Below, one piece after another: positions 1,435 to 39,298 of a stretch of DNA of 64,000 nucleotides. Position 1 is the first letter of the stretch; every line of letters starts with the position of its first letter. Position numbers and translations under genes: made by a program. A model generated the notes under the pieces. It was given only the letters and a program-made list of their open reading frames with translations. It was not told where the DNA came from and made no database searches. This stretch comes from Acidimicrobiia bacterium (GTDB lineage: Bacteria > Actinomycetota > Acidimicrobiia > Spongiisociales > ZC4RG35): the NCBI GenBank assembly GCA_041747855.1, contig JBGTEJ010000088.1, positions 362 through 64,361 of the forward strand, read 5' to 3'.

Positions 1435-3318
1435 TCACCCTCCCACCACCATCCAGATCATTAGGAGCAACGTGGCAACCATCAGGAATGCCGCATAGTT
1501 CCGAACCTGACCGGTCTGAAAGACCCTCATCCCCTGACCCGCACGCCGCACCAGGAACCCCAACCCGTTGACTGCTCCATCGATGGCCGGCAAATCGACC
1601 TTGAAGGCGGCCTTCTCGGCGAGCTTGAGACCCGGGGCTACCAACGTCGTGCCATAGATGTCGTCTACCCCGTATGCATCCTCCCAAAGACCCCAGACCC
1701 GTCCGAATCCCGATTCGAAACGTTCCCAATCTTCCTTGGGCCGGTTGTAGGCGAGGTAGGCGGCACCGATGCCACCGACCCCTGCCAGGACCGAGATACC
1801 TGCAAGGACGGCGAACATGAGCCATCCGGCCGGTGGATGGAGTACCCGGACCCCCTCGAAGGCCGGCTCCAGGAAGTGTTCCAGGGTGAATCGGAGCGGT
1901 GTGTTGACGAGACCTCCAACCATGGTGAGGACGGCCAGAACCACAAGGGGAACGGTCATGACCCGTGGCCCTTCATGGGGGTGAGCGTCGTCGGCCCAGC
2001 GAGGCTCGCCGAGGAACACGAGGACCCACTGACGGGTCATGTAGAAGGCCGTGATGAAAGCGGTGATCAGCCCAACCAACCAAAGGACGGAAAACCACCC
2101 GCCACGGTTGAAGAGACTGCCCAGGATCTCGTCCTTGGACCAGAAACCGGCGAGAGGGGGTATGCCTGAGATGGCCAGTGTTGCGATACCCATGGTCACC
2201 GCGGTCACCGGCATCTTCTTGAACAGGCCTCCCATCTTGCGCATGTCCTGTTCGTCGTTCAGGGCATGGATGACCGCCCCCGCACCGAGGAACAGAAGGG
2301 CCTTGAAGAAGGCATGGGTCATCAGGTGGAAGATCCCGGCGACATACGCGGTGGCTCCCACCGCCATGAACATGTATCCGAGTTGAGACACCGTCGAGTA
2401 GGCCAGGACCTTCTTGATGTCGCGTTGGGCGAGGGCGATCGTCGCCGCCCAGATGGCCGTCGCCGCACCGACAGTGGCGATGGTGACCTGTGCGGTTGTC
2501 GAGAGTTCGATGATCGGGGCAGACCGGGCGATCAGATAGACGCCGGCTGTGACCATGGTGGCGGCGTGGATGAGGGCCGAGACGGGAGTCGGGCCCTCCA
2601 TGGCGTCGGGAAGCCAAACGTACAGCGGGATCTGGGCGGACTTGCCTGCGGCCCCGAGCAGCAACAAGAGACCCACCGCGGTCGCCAGACCGGCACCGAG
2701 TTGGCTGGCCTCCCCGAAGATCCCCTCCATGGACAGCGTCCCGAAGACGGCGAACAGGATCATCATTGCGACCAACATCCCGAGGTCACCGATCCGGTTC
2801 ACCACGAACGCCTTCTTGGCGGCGCCCGCTGCCGACTCCCCGGTGAACCAGAACCCGATCAGCAGATAGGAACACAATCCCACCAACTCCCAGCCGAGGA
2901 AGAGCATGGCGAAGTTCCCGGCGAGAACCAGTGTCAGCATCGAGGCGGCGAACAGATTCAGGTAGGTGAAAAAGCGATGGAATCGGTCGTCGCCGTGCAT
3001 GTAGCCAATCGCGAACGCATGGATCAGGGCGCCCACCCCAGTGACCACGAGTGTCATCAGTGCAGCCAACGGATCCCAGAGGATCTCCAGATTGGCCCCG
3101 ATCGCCGGCATCCACTCCCAGAGCAGGATGCCCTGCCCGTGGTCGGTCCCCTGTAAGAAGGGCAGTGTGGCCACCAGGGCGACCGCGAAGGCTCCAGCGA
3201 TGGCAAGACTGGCGACCACCCCGGGCAAGGGCGCCTTGAGGAATCGCCCGAAGAAGTGAAGGAAAACCGCTCCGGCGAGTGGCAGAGCGATTACCAGCCA
3301 GATGTACTCGGTGATCAC
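1435..3318 (-). CDS. nuoL: NADH-quinone oxidoreductase subunit L
   Basis: 627-aa polytopic ORF with an ND5/NuoL pattern (WLPDAMEGPTPVSALIHAATMVTAGVYL). Its start overlaps the nuoK stop. Confidence 0.95.
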   Translation of the reverse strand: MITEYIWLVIALPLAGAVFLHFFGRFLKAPLPGVVASLAIAGAFAVALVATLPFLQGTDHGQGILLWEWMPAIGANLEILWDPLAALMTLVVTGVGALIHAFAIGYMHGDDRFHRFFTYLNLFAASMLTLVLAGNFAMLFLGWELVGLCSYLLIGFWFTGESAAGAAKKAFVVNRIGDLGMLVAMMILFAVFGTLSMEGIFGEASQLGAGLATAVGLLLLLGAAGKSAQIPLYVWLPDAMEGPTPVSALIHAATMVTAGVYLIARSAPIIELSTTAQVTIATVGAATAIWAATIALAQRDIKKVLAYSTVSQLGYMFMAVGATAYVAGIFHLMTHAFFKALLFLGAGAVIHALNDEQDMRKMGGLFKKMPVTAVTMGIATLAISGIPPLAGFWSKDEILGSLFNRGGWFSVLWLVGLITAFITAFYMTRQWVLVFLGEPRWADDAHPHEGPRVMTVPLVVLAVLTMVGGLVNTPLRFTLEHFLEPAFEGVRVLHPPAGWLMFAVLAGISVLAGVGGIGAAYLAYNRPKEDWERFESGFGRVWGLWEDAYGVDDIYGTTLVAPGLKLAEKAAFKVDLPAIDGAVNGLGFLVRRAGQGMRVFQTGQVRNYAAFLMVATLLLMIWMVVGG

Positions 3319-27217: not shown

Positions 27218-27901
27218 ATGCTAGGAAAATGGCGGTGGGTGTCGATTGCGACAGTCATCTCGTTGCTGACTCTGGGTTTAGGGACCGTGGCCTCAGCCGA
27301 CCCGTCCACAGAGGACATGTTCCTCTCCCAGATCAACGCCTCCCGCGCCGCGGCTGGCAAGGCGCCGTTGACCGTAGACGGCAATCTCCGCTCCTACGCG
27401 AGGAGTCACAGCCAGTTCATGGCCGACGGGAACTGCCCCCCGAAATCTGACGGCTCTCCGGCCAGCATCTGTCATTCGACCAGTGCCCAGCTCCAGGCTG
27501 CGGCCGGGAGCGGATGGTCGGCCCTCGGGGAGAACGTCGGGCGGGGCAACGCCAACTCGCTGCACGAGTCTTTCATGAACTCCCCGGGCCACCGGTCCAA
27601 CATCCTCGGGGACTACAACTATGTCGGAATCGGGACGGTGTACGCCAATGACTCGACATATGTCACGGTCGTGTTCATGAAGAAGGGGAGCACCTCGGGC
27701 GGCACCCCAACAACCACGACCACCAAACCAGCGACCACGACCACCACAGCCAAGGTCACCACGACAAGCACCTCGACCACGACCACAACGACCCTTCCAC
27801 CGACCACGACCACCACCTTGATCGTCGGTCCCGACAAGCCGGTGACGCCGGGAGGATCGTGTTTGACGGTGACCCGCTTTTGGTGGGTTTGTCACGACTG
27901 A
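27218..27901 (+). CDS. Secreted CAP/SCP (YkwD-like) domain protein with a poly-Thr linker
   Basis: Signal-peptide-like N-terminus, INASRAAAGKAPL ... HSQFMA ... GENVGRG ... FMNSPGHRSNIL ... GIG core, then a Thr-rich tract. Confidence 0.8.
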   Translation: MLGKWRWVSIATVISLLTLGLGTVASADPSTEDMFLSQINASRAAAGKAPLTVDGNLRSYARSHSQFMADGNCPPKSDGSPASICHSTSAQLQAAAGSGWSALGENVGRGNANSLHESFMNSPGHRSNILGDYNYVGIGTVYANDSTYVTVVFMKKGSTSGGTPTTTTTKPATTTTTAKVTTTSTSTTTTTTLPPTTTTTLIVGPDKPVTPGGSCLTVTRFWWVCHD

Positions 27902-27910
27902 GTTTCGCCT

Positions 27911-27933
27911 GTCCCCCTGTTCACGGGGGACAA
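27911..27933 (+). terminator. Hairpin 10 nt after the CAP-domain gene stop
   Basis: TGTCCCCC-tgttcac-GGGGGACA read directly. Confidence 0.45.
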
Positions 27934-27989
27934 CCCCACAGAGGCGGCACATCTGCGGTTCTGGTGTCCCCCTGGGGGGACAGAAGACG

Positions 27990-28441
27990 GAGCGGTAGCT
28001 GTGGCCGACCGGCGTCTGTTCGCCTGACGGACCCACCCCACCCGCCGTGGACCTGACCCTGATCCCCCGGACCAGACCCCATGGTGTTCTTGGAGGCAAA
28101 CAAGCGAAGTCGGCCACCACAAGTAAGTCCCAAACGCCGAACCCCATTGTTTGGGAGCGGTAGCTGTGGCCGACCGGCGTCCGTTCGCCTGACCGAGCTA
28201 GGCGGGGGGGCGAGACGCTGACCCTGATCCCCTGGGCCCAGAACCCATCGTATTCTTGGAGGCAAACAGGCGAAGTCGGCCGGAGTCTCAAAAGGTTGGA
28301 CCCGATCGTTTGGGAGCGGTAGCTGTGGCCGACCGGCGTCTGTTCGCCTGACGGACCCACCCCACCCGCCGTGAACCTGACCCTGATCCCCGGGGATGAG
28401 ACCGTATAGCGGTCCTGGAGGTAAACAGGCGAAGTCGGCCA
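27990..28441. repeat. Three tandem ~160-nt units (cores 27990..28116, 28155..28282, 28314..28441), non-coding
   Basis: Direct reading gives periods of 165 and 159 nt. Invariant blocks are GGAGCGGTAGCTGTGGCCGACCGGCGTC, CTGACCCTGATCCCC and AAACAGGCGAAGTCGGCC, with variable internal segments. Confidence 0.85.
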
Positions 28442-28539
28442 CCATAAAAACAAACGCCCTAGTGACCGCTGGAGCCTCCTCCGCACTTCCCCGAACGGAC
28501 GTTTCTCCAAACAACCTCTAGGGCGTCTGCTGTCGCTGA

Positions 28540-28568
28540 ATCTACGCCGTTGTCCAACCGCGTTCAAT
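28540..28568 (-). promoter_or_regulatory. Sigma-70-like promoter pointing into the repeat region
   Basis: Minus strand reads TTGAAC (28568..28563) - 17 nt - TAGATT (28545..28540). Confidence 0.4.
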
Positions 28569-28740
28569 CACCCTGCCAGCGCAATGTTTCGCGAGTTGAA
28601 TACCACTAACTCCCTCTATCTATCCTTGTTGGGTAGGACGGGGAACGGTTACCAACAGGAACCGGCGTTTTCCACAGGGTTTGTCCACACCGGTGTGTTT
28701 ACAAGTTTCTAAGCGAGTTTTTCGCGATCCGGTCTGGTCC

Positions 28741-29688
28741 TCAAGTCCTCTGGAGTCGGAGTCGAGACACCAGTGCTCCTACTGGTTGGCCGCCACCTCG
28801 GACCACCGGGCCAGCCACATCTGCCAACCTATCCCGGGCCGGTGCGCTGAGGAAACCCAACTCGTCGAGGGTCGCCACCGCAGCCAGGGATGCAACCTGC
28901 CCGGATCCATCCCAGGACTTGACGGCGATGCCGTAGCCGGCGGCCAATCCCACTCCGATGCATCCCTGGGCACCCCCCTTAGCCACCGCATCGAGGGCAA
29001 TTGCGATCGAAGTGTCCGGCTCTCCGTTCCCACCCACCATCGCCGGATAACGATGCATCGCCTCAAAGACGGTTGAGAACCGAGTGTCTGTTGCCAGGAT
29101 GGCGTACATGCGTGCCATCACTCTTGCGGTCGTTCGATGCACCGGTGCACCACATCCGTCGACCCCGACGGGTTCCGGGTCGAACCCTCCTATATCAGCA
29201 ACCAGGGCCGTGACCCTTTTCTGAAGCGGATGCTCCGGAGCCAGATAGGTCTCGACAGGCCAACCTTGCGTCCGACATGCCCTGAGGAACGCAGCATGCT
29301 TCCCGGAGCAGTTGTACCAAAGCTTCCTCGGCATAGTCTGAACCGATTTGATCAGCCGATCGGAAGCCGCCCGATTCGCTGGCCAGTCGGCAGGACACCC
29401 GAGCTGACTTTCCTCCAGCCCAAACCCGTGGAGCATGTCTTCTACGATCGCAATCTGGACAGGGTGGCCGCGATGCGAGGATGAGGCGATAGCCAACTGG
29501 AGGAGAGTGAGGTCTGCACCCGCTTCCTGCGAGGTGTAGGCCTGAAACGGTTTGCAGGCCGACCGGATGAAAAAGGACTGGTCGATGTCCCCGGAGTGTG
29601 CGATCAAGGAACCGTCAGGGGCACAAACGGCGACTGCCCCATCGTGGCGGGATTCGACCAGACCCGAGCGCACACTCTCGGCCAGCAT
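28741..29688 (-). CDS. Asparaginase family protein (L-asparaginase II type)
   Basis: ESRHDGAVAV, RSACKPFQA and NCSGKHAAFL motifs typical of the Asparaginase_II family. Confidence 0.8.
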   Translation of the reverse strand: MLAESVRSGLVESRHDGAVAVCAPDGSLIAHSGDIDQSFFIRSACKPFQAYTSQEAGADLTLLQLAIASSSHRGHPVQIAIVEDMLHGFGLEESQLGCPADWPANRAASDRLIKSVQTMPRKLWYNCSGKHAAFLRACRTQGWPVETYLAPEHPLQKRVTALVADIGGFDPEPVGVDGCGAPVHRTTARVMARMYAILATDTRFSTVFEAMHRYPAMVGGNGEPDTSIAIALDAVAKGGAQGCIGVGLAAGYGIAVKSWDGSGQVASLAAVATLDELGFLSAPARDRLADVAGPVVRGGGQPVGALVSRLRLQRT

Positions 29689-34596: not shown

Positions 34597-34640
34597 CCAG
34601 ATGTAGTGGACACTTCCCCACCGACCACAACATCTTGTGG
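34597..34640 (+). promoter_or_regulatory. Candidate tandem NrdR boxes
   Basis: Perfect 16-bp palindrome CCACAACATCTTGTGG (34625..34640) and a weaker CCAGATGTAGTGG (34597..34609) about 30 bp upstream, ahead of an nrd gene. Confidence 0.4.
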
Positions 34641-34714
34641 TTTTACAACATGCCAGATCAGATTTTGGGCTCGGTCCTTCCCATCCGAGTCCGGTGCGGA
34701 GGAGGCACTACAAC

Positions 34715-37700
34715 ATGACCAAAGGCCTGCGGATCAACCGGCGTTTCACCGAGGCCGGCAAGGACCCATACGACCAGTTCGAGTGGTCGTACCGAGACTC
34801 CAAGATCTCCAACCCCGACGGCTCGGTCGTCTTCGAGATGAAGGGTGCGGAGATCCCCGCCCAGTGGAGTCAGGTGGCTTCCGACATCATGGTGTCGAAG
34901 TACTTCCGCAAGGCGGGCGTCCCCCAGGTCGACGATGCCGGCAACCAGATCCTCGACGATGAAGGCAAGGCGGTCACCGGTCCCGAGCAGTCGGCCAAGC
35001 ATGTGTTCGACCGTCTTGCCGGCACATGGCGTCACTGGGGTGAGAGGGAGGGTTACTTCGCATCGACCGAGGATGCCGAAGCCTTCGAGGACGAGCTCAA
35101 GTACATGCTCGCCAACCAGATCGCCTCCCCCAACTCCCCGCAGTGGTTCAACACCGGCCTCAACTGGGCGTACGGGCTGACGGGGTCGCCCCAGGGATTC
35201 TGGTTCGTCGACAGCAACACCGGCGAGCTCACATCCTCTCCGGACGCCTACACACGTCCGGCCCCTCATGCCTGCTTCATCAATGAGGTGAGTGACGACC
35301 TTGTAAGCCCCGGTGGGATCATGGACCTCTGGATGAGGGAGGCCCGGCTCTTCAAGATGGGTTCAGGAACAGGGAGCAATTTCTCGAACATCCGATCGGA
35401 GAACGAGCCCTTGTCTGGTGGTGGCAAATCGTCCGGCGTCATGTCCTTCCTCAAGATCGGTGACCGTGCCGCTGGCGCGATCAAGTCGGGTGGCACCACG
35501 CGCCGCGCCGCCAAGATGGTGATCCTGGATGCTGATCATCCTGACATCGAGCAGTTCGTCGACTGGAAGAAGATCGAGGAGGAGAAGGCAAGGATCCTGA
35601 TCCAACACGGTGGTTTCCCCGCCGATTTCAACGGTGAGGCATACGCCACAGTGTCAGGTCAGAACTCGAACAACTCCGTGAGGGTGACCAACGAGTTCGT
35701 CCAGGCCGTCATCAGCGATGGCGACTGGAATCTGACGAACCGCACCGACGGTTCGGTCAGGAAGACCATCAAGGCCCGCGATCTCTGGAACAAGATTGCG
35801 GACGCGGCGTGGGCTTGCGCCGACCCGGGTCTTCAGTTCGACACCATCGTCAACGAGTGGCACACCTCCCCTGCAGGAGGTCGTATCAGGGCAACTAATC
35901 CTTGCTTCACGGGAGACATGCGAGTGGCAACGGACAAGGGCTTGATCCCTTTCAAGTCGCTGGTGAATCGCGTGACCGAAGGTGAGACGTTCCAGGTCTA
36001 TACCCACGACGCGACAAACCCCGACACGCCGACAGAGACCATCGATCTCACCTCTCCAACTCAGGTGATGGTTACGGGTGTGAATCAGATTCTGCGCCTC
36101 GAGTTCTCCGACGGCCGAGTGTTGCGGTCCACGCCGAACCACCGTTTGTGGACGGCTAACCGCGGTTGGGTTCGGGCCGATGAGCTGACCGATGACGACC
36201 AGGTTCGTCTCATCGACAACGAGATTGACTTTGGGATGGCGTCTTGGGAAATGCCTGTGTCAACCGACGCGTCGATGTATCAGCAACGGAAGTCGAGTCG
36301 TAAGTACGCAGTCAATCTTCCTGAGAAGTGGACCGAGGAATTCGCTCACTATCTCGGGTGGCTGGTCGGCGACGGCAGTGTTACCGACAAGATTGTCGTC
36401 ACAGTCTATGGGTCTACTGAAGAGCAACAGACCACCATGGTGCTCCATCAGGAGTTGCTTACCGAGATCAACGGTGGGTTCGAACTCAAGCCGACCAAGT
36501 TGCAGAACGGCACTTACCAGCTTCGAATCGGTCGCAATGCCTTCCGGCGGTTCGTCAAAGGTCTGGGTGTATCCCAAGCGAAGGCCGGCGACAAGAGAAT
36601 CCCGTGGTCCATATTCGAGGCGCCTAAGCCGATAGTCGCCGCCTTCCTTCGTGGGCTATACGACGCCGATGGCTGCGTTCGATATGGCGACACGACCAGG
36701 TATGTGGGCCTCGGAAGCGTCTCCAAAGAACTGTTGCGAGACGTTCAGCAGTTGCTCGACACGTTCGGTATTCACGGCTATATCTACGGCTACAAGAAGG
36801 CTCAACCCGACGCATTCACCTACGTGACGAGAGCGGGTGAAACTCGAACCTATGCTGGCCGCCAGGCTTTTGACCTGAGAGTCATGGGTTCCGACCTTGA
36901 GAGGTTCTTCGGGTCAATCGGGTTCGGACTGAGCTACAAGGACGACATCCTTCACCAGGCTCTGGTCGAAACAACTCGATACGCCACCAAGCACTGGGTC
37001 CGTATGAAGGGCCGGAGCGAGGATGGCTGGGAGACCACCTACAACCTGACCGAGCCGAAGAACCACTCGTACCTGACCACGGGAATACTCACTAGCAATT
37101 GTTCCGAATACAATTTTCTCGATAACACTGCCTGCAACCTCGCCAGCATCAACCTGGTCAGGTTTCTCGACCAAGAGACAGGTGTGTTCGATGTCGAGGG
37201 GTATCAGCACACAATCCGACTGTGGACGATCGTGCTCGAGATCTCGGTCGCGATGGCCCACTTCCCGTCACAGGAGATCGCCCAAGGGTCATACGACTAC
37301 CGGACGCTCGGCCTGGGGTACGCCAACCTCGGCTCCATGTTGATGCGTAAGGGAATCGCCTACGACTCTGATAAGGGAAGAGCGATGGCGGCAGCACTGA
37401 CCGCCATCCTCACCGGCTTCGCCTATGCCACGTCGGCGGAGATGGCGGCGGCCGTGGGTCCTTTCCCCAGGTTCGAGGAGAACCGCGAAGCGATGCTCCG
37501 GGTGATCAGGAACCATCGAAGGGCGGCCTACAACGCGGACCTCGCCGAGTACGAAGGCATCTCTCACTACGTGATGGGCGTGGATCCGGACCTCTGTCCT
37601 GAGAATGTCCTGGTCGGAGCCCGGGAATCGTGGGATCGTGCCCTGGCCCTCGGGGAACAGCATGGCTATCGCAACGCGCAGGCAAGTGTTTTGGCGCCGA

Positions 37701-39298
37701 CCGGAACTATCGGGCTGCAACTCGATTGTGATACCACCGGTGTCGAGCCCGACTTCGCTCTGGTCAAGTTCAAGAAGCTGGCCGGCGGCGGCTACTTCAA
37801 GATCGTCAACCAGTCGTTGGCTCCGGCGTTGACCAACCTCGGATATTCCAAAGAGCAACTCAAGGAGGTCGTCGATTACATCGTCGGAACCAACTCGATA
37901 GAGGACGCCCCCCACATCAACCGGGAGTCGCTCGCTGCGAAAGGCTTCAGCGACGAGGACTTGGAAAAGCTGGAGAGGGCCCTGCCGTCGGTGTTCGAAC
38001 TGAGGCACGCCTTCAATGTGTTCACCTTCGGCGAGGAGACCCTCCAGAGGATCGGGTTCACCGAAGACCAGTACACCGGGTGGGAGTTCAACCTCTTGAA
38101 GGAGCTGGGATTCACCTCAGCACAGATCACCGAGGCCAACGACCACATCTGCGGTCGGGGGACGATAGAGGGCGCACCCCACGTCAAGGACGAACACTTG
38201 CCGGTGTTCGACACGGCTAACAAGAACGGCAAGTACGGGGAGCGGTTCATCCACCACACCGGTCACCTCAAGATGCTGGCAGCAGTGCAGCCGCAGTTGA
38301 GTGGCTCGGCCTCGAAAACGATCAACCTGCCTAACGAAGCCACCGTGGAGGACATTGAAGAGTCCTACATGATGGCCTGGGAGTACGGCGTCAAGTGCAT
38401 TGCCCTTTACCGGGATGGCTCGAAGGCAGCCCAGCCGTTGTCGTCCACGTCCGACGAAGGAGACGACAACGCAGATGAGCCGCAAGCTGTGACCGTTGCG
38501 GTGGAATCCGAGAAGGCGATCCACTGGGGCAACCTGCCGAAGGGACTTTCCCCGACCCAGGCGTATGCACAGGGGATGCAGCCACCCAGGTTCCTGCTGC
38601 CCGCAAAGCGGCGTGGCTTCAACCAGGAGGCACGGGTCGGTGGCCACAAGGTCTATCTTCGGACCGGTGAATACGACGACGGGACACTCGGTGAGATCTT
38701 CATCGACCTGGCGAAGGAAGGGGCGACCCTGAAGGGGATCCTCTCCTGCTTCGCTATCGCCGTTTCGAAGGGTCTCCAGTACGGGGTGCCGCTGGATGAG
38801 TACGTCGACACCTTCACCTTCCAGACCTTCGAACCGAGGGGCATGGTCGAAGGCCATCAGAACATCAAGATGGCCAACTCGATCATTGATTACGTGTTCC
38901 GGGCGTTGGGTGTGGAGTATCTGAAGCGGGACGAACTCGCCCAGGTTCCACCGGACCGTGAGTTGGCAGCGCCACCAAAGGGTCTCGCCGTCGAGGCCGG
39001 GCTCCAGGTGACGCTCGAGGAGGCAGTGGCCGAGATCGACATAGATGCCCTTCAGGCTGCTGCAGACTTCGTCGACGCACCGACAGGCTCGAGCAAGGAA
39101 CAGGTGGCGACGATGGTTGTCGAGAAGGTGACCCAGATGGCCGTTGCCAAGGTCAACGGCAAAGCCGACACTGCCGACCTGGCTTTGAGGGAGAACATGG
39201 GTGACGCCCCGGCCTGCTCCAACTGCGGTCACATGACCATCAGAAACGGCAGTTGCTACGTCTGTCTCACTTGCGGGGACACAACAGGCTGTAGCTGA
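34715..39298 (+). CDS. nrdJ: Class II (adenosylcobalamin-dependent) ribonucleotide reductase, intein-containing precursor
   Basis: ATG at 34715 follows GGAGGAGG. Radical-site block TNP|C SEYNFLDNTACNLASINL is split by an intein. C-terminal CSNCGH...CYVCLTCG zinc ribbon. Confidence 0.9.
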   Translation: MTKGLRINRRFTEAGKDPYDQFEWSYRDSKISNPDGSVVFEMKGAEIPAQWSQVASDIMVSKYFRKAGVPQVDDAGNQILDDEGKAVTGPEQSAKHVFDRLAGTWRHWGEREGYFASTEDAEAFEDELKYMLANQIASPNSPQWFNTGLNWAYGLTGSPQGFWFVDSNTGELTSSPDAYTRPAPHACFINEVSDDLVSPGGIMDLWMREARLFKMGSGTGSNFSNIRSENEPLSGGGKSSGVMSFLKIGDRAAGAIKSGGTTRRAAKMVILDADHPDIEQFVDWKKIEEEKARILIQHGGFPADFNGEAYATVSGQNSNNSVRVTNEFVQAVISDGDWNLTNRTDGSVRKTIKARDLWNKIADAAWACADPGLQFDTIVNEWHTSPAGGRIRATNPCFTGDMRVATDKGLIPFKSLVNRVTEGETFQVYTHDATNPDTPTETIDLTSPTQVMVTGVNQILRLEFSDGRVLRSTPNHRLWTANRGWVRADELTDDDQVRLIDNEIDFGMASWEMPVSTDASMYQQRKSSRKYAVNLPEKWTEEFAHYLGWLVGDGSVTDKIVVTVYGSTEEQQTTMVLHQELLTEINGGFELKPTKLQNGTYQLRIGRNAFRRFVKGLGVSQAKAGDKRIPWSIFEAPKPIVAAFLRGLYDADGCVRYGDTTRYVGLGSVSKELLRDVQQLLDTFGIHGYIYGYKKAQPDAFTYVTRAGETRTYAGRQAFDLRVMGSDLERFFGSIGFGLSYKDDILHQALVETTRYATKHWVRMKGRSEDGWETTYNLTEPKNHSYLTTGILTSNCSEYNFLDNTACNLASINLVRFLDQETGVFDVEGYQHTIRLWTIVLEISVAMAHFPSQEIAQGSYDYRTLGLGYANLGSMLMRKGIAYDSDKGRAMAAALTAILTGFAYATSAEMAAAVGPFPRFEENREAMLRVIRNHRRAAYNADLAEYEGISHYVMGVDPDLCPENVLVGARESWDRALALGEQHGYRNAQASVLAPTGTIGLQLDCDTTGVEPDFALVKFKKLAGGGYFKIVNQSLAPALTNLGYSKEQLKEVVDYIVGTNSIEDAPHINRESLAAKGFSDEDLEKLERALPSVFELRHAFNVFTFGEETLQRIGFTEDQYTGWEFNLLKELGFTSAQITEANDHICGRGTIEGAPHVKDEHLPVFDTANKNGKYGERFIHHTGHLKMLAAVQPQLSGSASKTINLPNEATVEDIEESYMMAWEYGVKCIALYRDGSKAAQPLSSTSDEGDDNADEPQAVTVAVESEKAIHWGNLPKGLSPTQAYAQGMQPPRFLLPAKRRGFNQEARVGGHKVYLRTGEYDDGTLGEIFIDLAKEGATLKGILSCFAIAVSKGLQYGVPLDEYVDTFTFQTFEPRGMVEGHQNIKMANSIIDYVFRALGVEYLKRDELAQVPPDRELAAPPKGLAVEAGLQVTLEEAVAEIDIDALQAAADFVDAPTGSSKEQVATMVVEKVTQMAVAKVNGKADTADLALRENMGDAPACSNCGHMTIRNGSCYVCLTCGDTTGCS
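35903..37099 (+). mobile_element. 399-aa intein with a LAGLIDADG homing-endonuclease domain
   Basis: Starts CFTGDMRVATDKG directly after TNP. Block B is STPNHRLW. LAGLIDADG motifs are YLGWLVGDGS and AFLRGLYDADG. Ends HSYLTTGILTSN, followed by Cys+1. Confidence 0.85.

Follow-up and report, generated by a model that had tools for sequence, protein, structure and literature searches.

We describe here a palindromic repeat unit, present in three tandem copies in the gap between two convergent genes of an Acidimicrobiia genome, and we regard it as probable that these copies are a tandem cluster of an interspersed element of the REP/REPIN/BIME type, amplified at this site together with its flanks. 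The unit family is most likely previously undescribed and at home in a clade of uncultured soil Acidimicrobiia, and a dedicated tandem non-coding RNA gene is the disfavoured reading. Our interpretation builds on features that were observed directly, namely the structure of the unit, its conservation, its occurrence at several loci with corresponding empty sites, its orientation, its open frame and its tandem amplification including the flanks.

A tandem array between the CAP-domain and asparaginase genes

The window (the whole stretch of DNA that was analysed, 64,000 nucleotides) is ordinary chromosome, with a nuo operon, cytochromes, a class II ribonucleotide reductase, an RsiG-family protein (PF22802) and ABC transporters. 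A Pfam search of its approximately 50 ORFs found no transposase, integrase or HUH domain. Homologues of the window asparaginase are labelled Acidimicrobiia, the closest being only 75% identical. The gap and its surroundings contain the following features:

27218–27901, + strand: CAP-domain protein gene (Pfam)
27911–27981, + strand: G+C-rich pair of hairpins after the CAP gene stop
27992–28117, no strand: unit 1 core, 126 nt, with a 1-nt deletion relative to the other units
28118–28156, no strand: spacer 1, which copies array-flanking sequence
28157–28283, no strand: unit 2 core, 127 nt, outer stem ending in ..GG
28284–28315, no strand: spacer 2
28316–28442, no strand: unit 3 core, 127 nt
28443–28740, no strand: conserved non-coding element that fills the 298 nt from the array to the asparaginase stop
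28741–29688, − strand: asparaginase II gene (Pfam)

Tandem Repeats Finder reports a single tandem array in the gap between the convergent genes, at 27989–28442, with a period of 159, 2.8 copies, 76% matches and a score of 546. An earlier model reading of the letters alone (the sequence-only reading) had proposed three tandem units with periods of 165 and 159 nt, both multiples of 3, and this is confirmed: each of its three invariant blocks has exactly three occurrences in the 64-kb window, all of them at the positions it gave, the chance expectation for the two long blocks in a window of this size being none. Its core of about 127 nt with closing helices was likewise right, as the cores measured from GCGGTAGCTG to GTCGGCCAC span 126, 127 and 127 nt in units 1, 2 and 3, the 1-nt deletion being confined to unit 1 among the three.

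The copy-specific segments of the units were also recovered by a three-way alignment, in which units 1 and 3 carry CCCACCCCACCCGCC where unit 2 carries GGCGGGGGGGCG, and unit 3 has GACCG-TATAG-CGGTC against CCAGA...TCTTGG in units 1 and 2. In the same alignment the first interior segment of unit 2 approximates the reverse complement of its counterpart in units 1 and 3, which looks like a flip at the DNA level. In spacer 1, CCACCA..CAAACGCC resembles the stretch after unit 3 and ..GTTTGG resembles the stretch before unit 3; since the spacer repeats the sequence that flanks the array, each repeat period comprises the element plus its flanks. A short-read assembly of the same organism, made independently (Logan contig L027), breaks off within unit 3, the expected behaviour of a true repeat.

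The left boundary of the array insertion is formed by the two hairpins behind the CAP gene (GTCCCCC-TGTTCAC-GGGGGAC at 27911–27931 and TGTCCCC-CTG-GGGGACA at 27965–27981), which are probably the terminators of this gene, and the right boundary by the conserved element at 28443–28740. In L183, a relative that does not have the array, a homologous hairpin adjoins the conserved non-coding element.

The gap had been called gene-free, and its flanking convergent genes are indeed as described, but the conserved element means that it is not featureless. This element is single-copy, syntenic and strikingly conserved in six lineages, lies outside the repeat family and has no match in Rfam. Its hairpin at 28455–28525 contains a 31-nt block that does not vary among five of the lineages and departs from this sequence at one base in the remaining one, shows compensatory stem changes, has a strong fold (z = −4.9 on the minus strand) and is followed on that strand by a U-rich tail. 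Three or four DnaA-box-like 9-mers in direct orientation lie at 28649, 28668, 28681 and 28694, one of them being the window's only perfect TTGTCCACA. In L151/L152 the whole element is inverted relative to its neighbours, and it therefore acts as an autonomous module.

A helix-bulge-helix module closes the unit

All copies have a module in common that consists, on the window + strand, of a tail GCGG(T/C)AGCT followed by two helices, an outer one of 9 bp and an inner one of 8 bp, with a 9-nt bulge between them. The parts of two window units and the inner-stem arms (5'/3') of the copies are:

Unit 1: tail GCGGTAGCT; outer stem GTGGCCGAC/GTCGGCCAC; bulge CGGCGTCTG; inner stem TTCGCCTG/CAAGCGAA, with one C-A mismatch on the + strand
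Unit 3: tail 28316–28324; outer stem 28325–28333 with 28434–28442; bulge 28334–28342; inner stem 28343–28350 with 28426–28433; mid-block TCCCCGG 28387–28393
Inner-stem arms, window units and L154: TTCGCCTG/CAGGCGAA
Inner-stem arms, L135 and L165: TTCGCCCG/CGGGCGAA
Inner-stem arms, L184b: TTTGCTCG/CGAGCAAA
Inner-stem arms, L006: TTTCGGAC/GTCCGAAA

The unit thus has terminal inverted repeats, GTGGCCGAC...GTCGGCCAC plus TTCGCCTG...CAGGCGAA. Its arms are inverted copies of each other that differ by the 9-nt bulge, the 3' arm having no bulge segment. The bulge CGGCGTCTG is found on the 5' side only and is invariant over nine copies save for 1 nt in unit 2, whose CGGCGTCCG is the sole bulge variant among all copies. 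The tetranucleotide G(T/C)AG sits 2 nt ahead of the outer stem in all full and short copies; it reads GTAG in the window units, L135c and L006, and GCAG in L154, L165 and L184a/b.

The long-range complementarity noticed in the sequence-only reading is real: folded with DNA parameters, unit 3 adopts as its minimum-energy structure exactly the 9-bp outer stem, the 9-nt bulge and the 8-bp inner stem. Across nine copies, 70 of the 71 cells of the inner helix are Watson-Crick, with changes on both sides at 6 of its 8 pairs, and pairing holds in 78 of the 81 cells of the outer helix, where L184a and L184b show double changes (pairs 2 and 3). The alternative pairing register that RNAalifold prefers gives poorer pair counts and was rejected. 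Mismatches in the module show no strand preference (two cells are G-T on the + strand only, one on the − strand only), and whole units folded as RNA reach energies that do not significantly surpass those of shuffled sequences (z = −0.35 to −1.9).

Covariation in the helices and a bulge that does not vary show that selection acts on a hairpin formed by single-stranded nucleic acid. Selection at the level of the hairpin keeps a cis-acting RNA role among the possible readings.

Copies at unrelated loci and empty sites in relatives

Acidimicrobiia genomes carry the unit at four loci that are unrelated to one another, and precise empty sites exist in relatives. Its contexts are the CAP/asparaginase gap, the rplN-rplX junction (in three lineages), the secY-adk spacer and a site upstream of a membrane-protein gene. 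A 25–29-nt identical block and the same helix-bulge-helix recur at the three loci besides that of the window, all in other genomes.

At the window locus, the closest relative (L154) carries at least two units in the same place and orientation, with a contig that ends within the array; the period of that array is 160 and its two units differ by one base. Five more distant lineages (L149, L151/L152, L155/L156, L183) share the synteny RsiG - asparaginase - (YbjN) - gap - CAP and do not have the unit, so the array was inserted in the lineage to which the window and L154 belong.

Three lineages carry the unit between rplN and rplX. L135, assigned to Acidimicrobiia through its L24 homologues, has one full and two partial copies there; nine contigs of another L24 lineage (L165–L173) have one 127-nt unit at the junction; and the third lineage (L184) combines a minimal 53-nt form at rplN-rplX (L184a) with a full 128-nt unit in the secY-adk spacer (L184b), which places two copies within 5 kb of each other. 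Only L184 has a filled secY-adk spacer; in L160 and L165 it is empty. Four other L24 lineages are without the unit at rplN-rplX, where the two genes overlap as GTGATGAAA (L159–L164 and L174–L182) or lie 11 nt apart (L158). The remaining locus is in L006, an unclassified MAG, with a single 83-nt copy between two same-strand genes that was found through a 29-nt identical block.

The tally is therefore four loci in approximately 350 kb of Acidimicrobiia DNA, one of them in the 64-kb window, and beyond the window and L184 copies none was seen in the other 250 kb or so examined. An nhmmer profile of the units found no copies beyond those described in the 1.2 Mb of collected loci. A 19-mer scanned against the genome collection gave seven matches, six apparently by chance and one real (L006); an 18-mer scanned against metagenomes matched mostly conserved coding sequence, L135 being the sole real copy among the matches listed. 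Scans of viral contigs gave chance matches only, and the plasmid and phage collections gave no match to the unit.

Two candidates from the ribosomal-protein loci were set aside. A second palindromic insertion, between rplE and rpsN, has only CCGACTTC in common with the unit and was assigned to a separate family, and a hammerhead-like CUGAUGA..GAAAC in L135 is the context of the rplN stop and rplX start, present at empty sites too.

This distribution decides against a purely local tandem duplication, that is, a minisatellite unrelated to other loci. Such an origin would suit repeat periods that take in flanking sequence, as well as L154 units that differ by a single base, but it is contradicted by the identical block and the shared helix-bulge-helix at three other loci, and we give it almost no credence.

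The flanks of the unit at rplN-rplX have an imperfect similarity of approximately 20 nt that includes GAGGT and ATGA, which could reflect a duplication or selection for a new ribosome-binding site. No target duplication is evident at the window locus and no clear short one at the loci examined. The rplN-rplX insertion looks old and has been kept across lineages with 88% identical L24 proteins. With respect to the upstream gene the element points the same way at each of the four loci, which fits either a role in RNA or the replication-strand bias of single-strand transposition.

Selection on RNA is the content of the foremost rival, which we consider unlikely though clearly worth weighing: the helix-bulge-helix would be a host-selected cis-acting module in mRNAs and 3' UTRs, a binding, processing, stabilising or terminating hairpin, with spread being secondary and the window array serving as a triple 3'-end structure between convergent genes. 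It would account for the identical strand, in the sense of the upstream gene, at all four independent loci, for an invariant bulge and compensatory helices that mark selection on a single-stranded fold, for an insertion kept in the essential spc operon across three lineages, for a minimal form that retains exactly the module, and for the low copy number observed. Against this, no common function links the contexts (asparaginase/CAP, rplN/rplX, secY/adk and a membrane-protein gene), close relatives do without the element and show a precise empty site in its place, and the window array is flanked on both sides by terminator-like hairpins. In addition, the mismatches show no strand preference, the whole-unit RNA fold z-scores are weak, and no promoter or terminator is predicted.

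The interior of the unit varies freely

Between the two main locus groups the interiors are 22–35% identical, compared with a random expectation of 25–28%. Despite this divergence a C-run lies at the same position, and the core measures 127 nt in five of the seven full-length copies and 126 or 128 nt in the other two. No conserved interior helix was found on either strand among the unit copies compared. The interior, which takes up about 75 nt in full units, is shortened or lost in L006 and L184a with the module retained, and L184a is in fact the module alone, a 44-nt helix-bulge-helix closed by a triloop.

Rfam was consulted for known RNA families, none of which the sequence-only reading could name for the unit. 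No relevant match was obtained for the region (E<=10), for the whole window (gathering score) or for the four related loci, the only matches at E<=10 being a chance lncRNA and a chance miRNA. Full-text literature searches turned up neither the core sequence nor REP elements in Acidimicrobiia. Integron attC, CRISPR, retron, parS and dif sites were dismissed, as there are neither partner genes nor a core of the ATAA-N6-TTAT type.

These observations bear on the idea that each unit is a gene, repeated in tandem, for a small structured RNA that acts in trans. The blocks are more strongly conserved than neighbouring proteins, the core keeps to 126–128 nt in seven full-length copies, the helices covary and no known family matches, all as such genes would predict. 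On the other side, synteny ends with the closest relative, copies lie within operons at stop/start junctions, truncated and minimal copies occur, the interior has no conserved helix or sequence except the C-run, one interior segment of unit 2 is flipped with respect to units 1 and 3, and no promoter-like site was found. We consider tandem RNA genes improbable.

The sequence-only reading had left the choice between a tandem array of structured non-coding RNA and a MITE-like repeat. Its repeat half stands, refined to a REP/REPIN/MIRU-like element and backed by four loci, precise empty sites, variable tandem number, truncated forms and an interior with no conserved structure; the half that invoked a tandem RNA gene is unlikely. 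A plain MITE, which it had named as one outcome that would overturn its proposal, does not describe what is seen either: the copies are few, and neither a clear short target duplication nor a parent transposon was found.

An open frame is maintained without a conserved peptide

It had also been argued that the reading frame is not preserved between units. The 1-nt deletion in unit 1 agrees with this, but the periods are multiples of 3 and two minus-strand ORFs of 197 and 424 aa traverse the whole window array, so the claim is only partly right. On the mRNA-sense strand, the frame VADFAC..GD..RTDAGRPQLP is open in most copies, including those of the window, L154, L135 and L165, and all three frames of this strand are mostly stop-free. 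In the rplN-rplX copies the ORF begins at an ATG that overlaps the rplN stop and ends at a TGA that overlaps the rplX start in L165 and L184a or lies 2 nt before it in L135; its size is 51 codons in L165, 84 in L135 and 27, in another register, in L184a.

Codon comparison of the window with L154 gave 7 synonymous and 17 non-synonymous changes in the VADFAC frame and 1–3 synonymous changes in the other frames, and L135 against L165 gave no frame signal. The 197-aa ORF as a query had no homologue at E<=10 among 5.8 billion proteins. The peptide is not conserved, since the open frame of L184a passes through the 3' block in another register.

A repeat that encodes a minus-strand peptide or repeat protein in the VADFAC frame is thus largely refuted and, to us, scarcely credible. 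It draws on the ORFs that span the array, on the same frame being open in the window, L154, L135 and L165, on an rplN-rplX ORF that runs from the overlapping ATG to the rplX start or beside it, and on the excess of synonymous changes over the other frames. However, the codon differences are mainly non-synonymous, third codon positions are invariant over 29–37 nt in the end blocks, the L154 period of 160 is not a multiple of 3, and the register change in L184a, the general lack of stops in that strand, the absence of frame signal between L135 and L165 and the lack of homologues likewise speak against a protein. A conserved peptide is ruled out by the codon tests and the frame change, and what persists is an open, coupled frame of the kind known from MIRUs (PMC3184786): in operons, the stop-free frame preserves translational coupling.

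Comparison with known repeat families

REPs are imperfect palindromes of 20–50 nt, often with a conserved bulge, that occur in tens to hundreds of intergenic copies per genome. Genomes with REPs and BIMEs carry a tnpA_REP gene (RAYT, HUH/Y1), and a REP and an inverted REP are parted by a variable linker. By definition, REPs and BIMEs have GTAG ahead of the palindrome and a bulge that is functional, and REP and iREP are arrayed in tandem (PMC8266576). In REPINs the inverted ends are conserved, the spacer keeps its length and its capacity for hairpin formation, compensatory changes occur and the 5' tail is single-stranded; their tandem clusters, flanks included, can comprise as many as 4 units and exceed 700 bp (PMC3116915).

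The Acidimicrobiia unit closely resembles these elements of Pseudomonas and Enterobacteria in several respects. It is a small imperfect palindrome whose inverted ends close a long hairpin with compensatory stem changes; its spacer is constrained in length and pairing capacity and free in sequence; a single-stranded 5' tail places G(T/C)AG ahead of the palindrome, and the stem has a conserved bulge. Like REPs it is intergenic, often after the 3' ends of genes, with its inverted arms repeated in tandem copies and in ordered clusters of 2–4 that include the flanks.

Several points nevertheless speak against a REP-like reading. Few copies are seen, only four loci in about 350 kb; the tetranucleotide alternates between GTAG and GCAG, and in one REP system that was tested a GCAG substrate was barely cleaved (PMC8266576). 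The 3' arm, having no 9-nt bulge segment, is not a full inverted REP, and there is no clear short target duplication. The unit also differs from REPs and BIMEs in its Acidimicrobiia host, in the large (9 nt) and invariant bulge, in a full length of 127 nt with about 75 nt of extra interior (minimal forms being 53 and 83 nt), and in that no RAYT is among the approximately 50 window ORFs. The term Actinobacteria returned no matches in the searched text of a survey of RAYTs (PMC5581495).

The second family that behaves in a comparable manner is that of the mycobacterial MIRUs. Their ORFs overlap the adjacent genes at both ends, which maintains translational coupling along the polycistron (PMC3184786), and the ends of the small ORF in our unit similarly overlap flanking operon genes. 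MIRUs share with the unit an actinobacterial host, an intergenic position in operons, frequent tandem arrangement with variable copy number, and filled and empty sites (PMC3184786). The analogy is one of behaviour only, since the unit is 127 nt long, is not from Mycobacterium, has no sequence similarity to MIRUs and is defined by a long-range helix-bulge-helix (dyad symmetry) with covariation. For their part, MIRUs are 40–100 bp long, Mycobacterium-specific and present at approximately 40–50 loci per genome.

True MITEs have short target duplications and a parent IS, and the ERIC, Correia and RPE families have many near-identical copies per genome. ERIC/IRU, Correia (NEMIS), RPE and other MITEs are, like the unit, imperfect palindromes of 100–170 bp that are co-transcribed with their neighbours, some having open frames and being tolerated in or near coding regions (PMC3184786). 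The unit has terminal inverted repeats as MITEs do; in contrast to ERIC, Correia and RPE elements, its interiors are at random-level identity and its ends almost invariant across genera. No parent transposon was found in the plasmid and phage collections or among the roughly 50 window ORFs.

Proposed mechanism

Taking the REP/REPIN/BIME-like element as the preferred reading, we propose that the selected part of the unit is the base of the hairpin (tail, outer helix, bulge and inner helix), with an interior of approximately 75 nt that is free to vary in sequence and can even be missing. The module would fold whenever the DNA is single-stranded or transcribed, and the folded form would be recognised in trans by a protein encoded elsewhere in the genome. 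Both the mobility in trans and the identity of this partner are what we infer; the likeliest candidate would be an HUH/Y1 single-strand transposase of the RAYT or IS200-IS605 type, as for REP and REPIN.

Such a putative transposase would seed copies into intergenic spacers just downstream of genes. In every case the orientation of the element leaves a stop-free strand in the mRNA sense. Because of this stop-free strand, the element would be tolerated even at stop/start junctions of ribosomal-protein operons, where its mini-ORF would keep translational coupling. At the window locus, one inserted copy with its flanks was then amplified to three tandem units, by unequal recombination or by slippage as the presumed mechanism, and exchange between the units would have given rise to their mosaic pattern and to the flip of an interior segment in unit 2.

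A host-selected function would also fit the old insertion at rplN-rplX and the near-exact core length. The small number of copies, the variable tetranucleotide and an apparently old insertion in the spc operon are the reasons for which a host-selected cis-acting RNA role stays open.

A further reading, to which we assign only a minor share of probability, is that the module is the recognition site of an undescribed system, either a machinery of Actinomycetota for single-strand DNA mobilisation or a portable tag for a host RNA-binding protein. The DNA machinery may target gene ends and stop/start junctions with translational coupling preserved. Alternatively, the module may be a cis-regulatory tag on unrelated mRNAs, for which the core of 126–128 nt may be a structural requirement.

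Significance

Proteobacteria, and Mycobacterium with its MIRUs, have well-studied interspersed palindromic repeats; in Acidimicrobiia, an abundant and mostly uncultured lineage of soil and water, such repeats are hardly known. The unit is unusual in having ends that are more strictly conserved across genera than ribosomal proteins, in its large invariant bulge, and in an insertion placed exactly at overlapping stop/start codons of the spc operon with translational coupling unbroken. In practical terms, the unit breaks short-read assemblies, one Logan contig stopping in unit 3, and could act as a strain marker of the VNTR type. The module itself is a defined nucleic-acid substrate with which the protein predicted to recognise it may be sought.

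A conserved element beside the array

Next to the three tandem palindromic units, in the space between the CAP-domain gene and the asparaginase gene, we observed a single-copy, syntenic non-coding element of approximately 300 nt (window 28443-28740). Six lineages of Acidimicrobiia retain it, with asparaginases just 67-75% identical to that of the window, and it contains the following features:

28455-28525: covarying hairpin, with a 31-nt block inside
28649, 28668, 28681 and 28694: DnaA-box-like 9-mers, in direct orientation

Five of the six lineages share the 31-nt block without any change, and the sixth (contig L183) departs from it at a single base. A U-rich tail follows the hairpin on the minus strand. 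In the array-less relatives L151/L152 the element is inverted with respect to the neighbouring genes; in another, L155, it is adjoined by an IS with a DDE_Tnp_1 transposase (2382-3212), missing from the near-identical L156. A search of Rfam gave no match for the element; it may represent a cluster of DnaA boxes or the gene of a novel sRNA.

Directly after the conserved hairpin, at 28526-28535, the window carries GGGCGTCTG(C/T)T, as does its closest relative L154 at the same position. These are the two array-bearing genomes; the array-less relatives differ there. The sequence is similar to the bulge core of the unit, CGGCGTCTGTT, a likeness which may be coincidental, or may point to a remnant or to a preferred target.

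Genes converge on the conserved element, lying on the plus strand from 21.6 to 27.9 kb and on the minus strand from 28.7 to 33.7 kb, and its flanking genes are likewise convergent in the array-less relative L149. Over the whole window (1-64000) the GC skew passes, as a weak signal, from slightly positive to negative with a turning point at about 20-28 kb. Together, the weak skew change and the gene convergence resemble a replication terminus; no dif-like site was seen.

Other repeats and insertions

Towards its 3' end, the CAP-domain gene has a stretch rich in ACCACG hexamers (27713-27817), which encodes a Thr-rich linker. Beside the short unit copy of the unclassified MAG L006, and upstream of a gene for a large membrane protein, direct repeats of the TTTCACGTTCCACG type follow one another (L006 7712-7760), perhaps as an operator or an array of binding sites. 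In the window, the ribonucleotide reductase of class II (B12-dependent; 34637-39298) has 1553 aa with a LAGLIDADG domain inside, against 1135-1176 aa in relatives; the domain and the extra length are consistent with an intein.

In Acidimicrobiia ribosomal-protein operons, the rpsJ (S10)-rplC (L3) spacer holds two 95-nt units in tandem in L165 (420-640) and also in L168, L169 and L170, and one unit only in L184 (4595-4682). These belong to a sequence family other than that of the window unit. Each terminates in a copy of the final 18 nt of rpsJ, GTGGAGATCAAGCTATGA, thereby creating 32-codon ORFs chained by overlapping ATGA start/stop codons, an arrangement very similar to that of MIRU.

Between rplE and rpsN there is a second insertion of palindromic type, 60-175 nt long and with the ends GCGATGCGACG...GACGCCACATCGC:

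L161 2184-2357: filled
L163 948-1121: filled
L160 10867-11017: filled
L174 3864-3927: filled
L162 1783-1792: empty

Since the site is filled or empty even between contigs encoding an identical L24 protein, this insertion represents a recent polymorphism.
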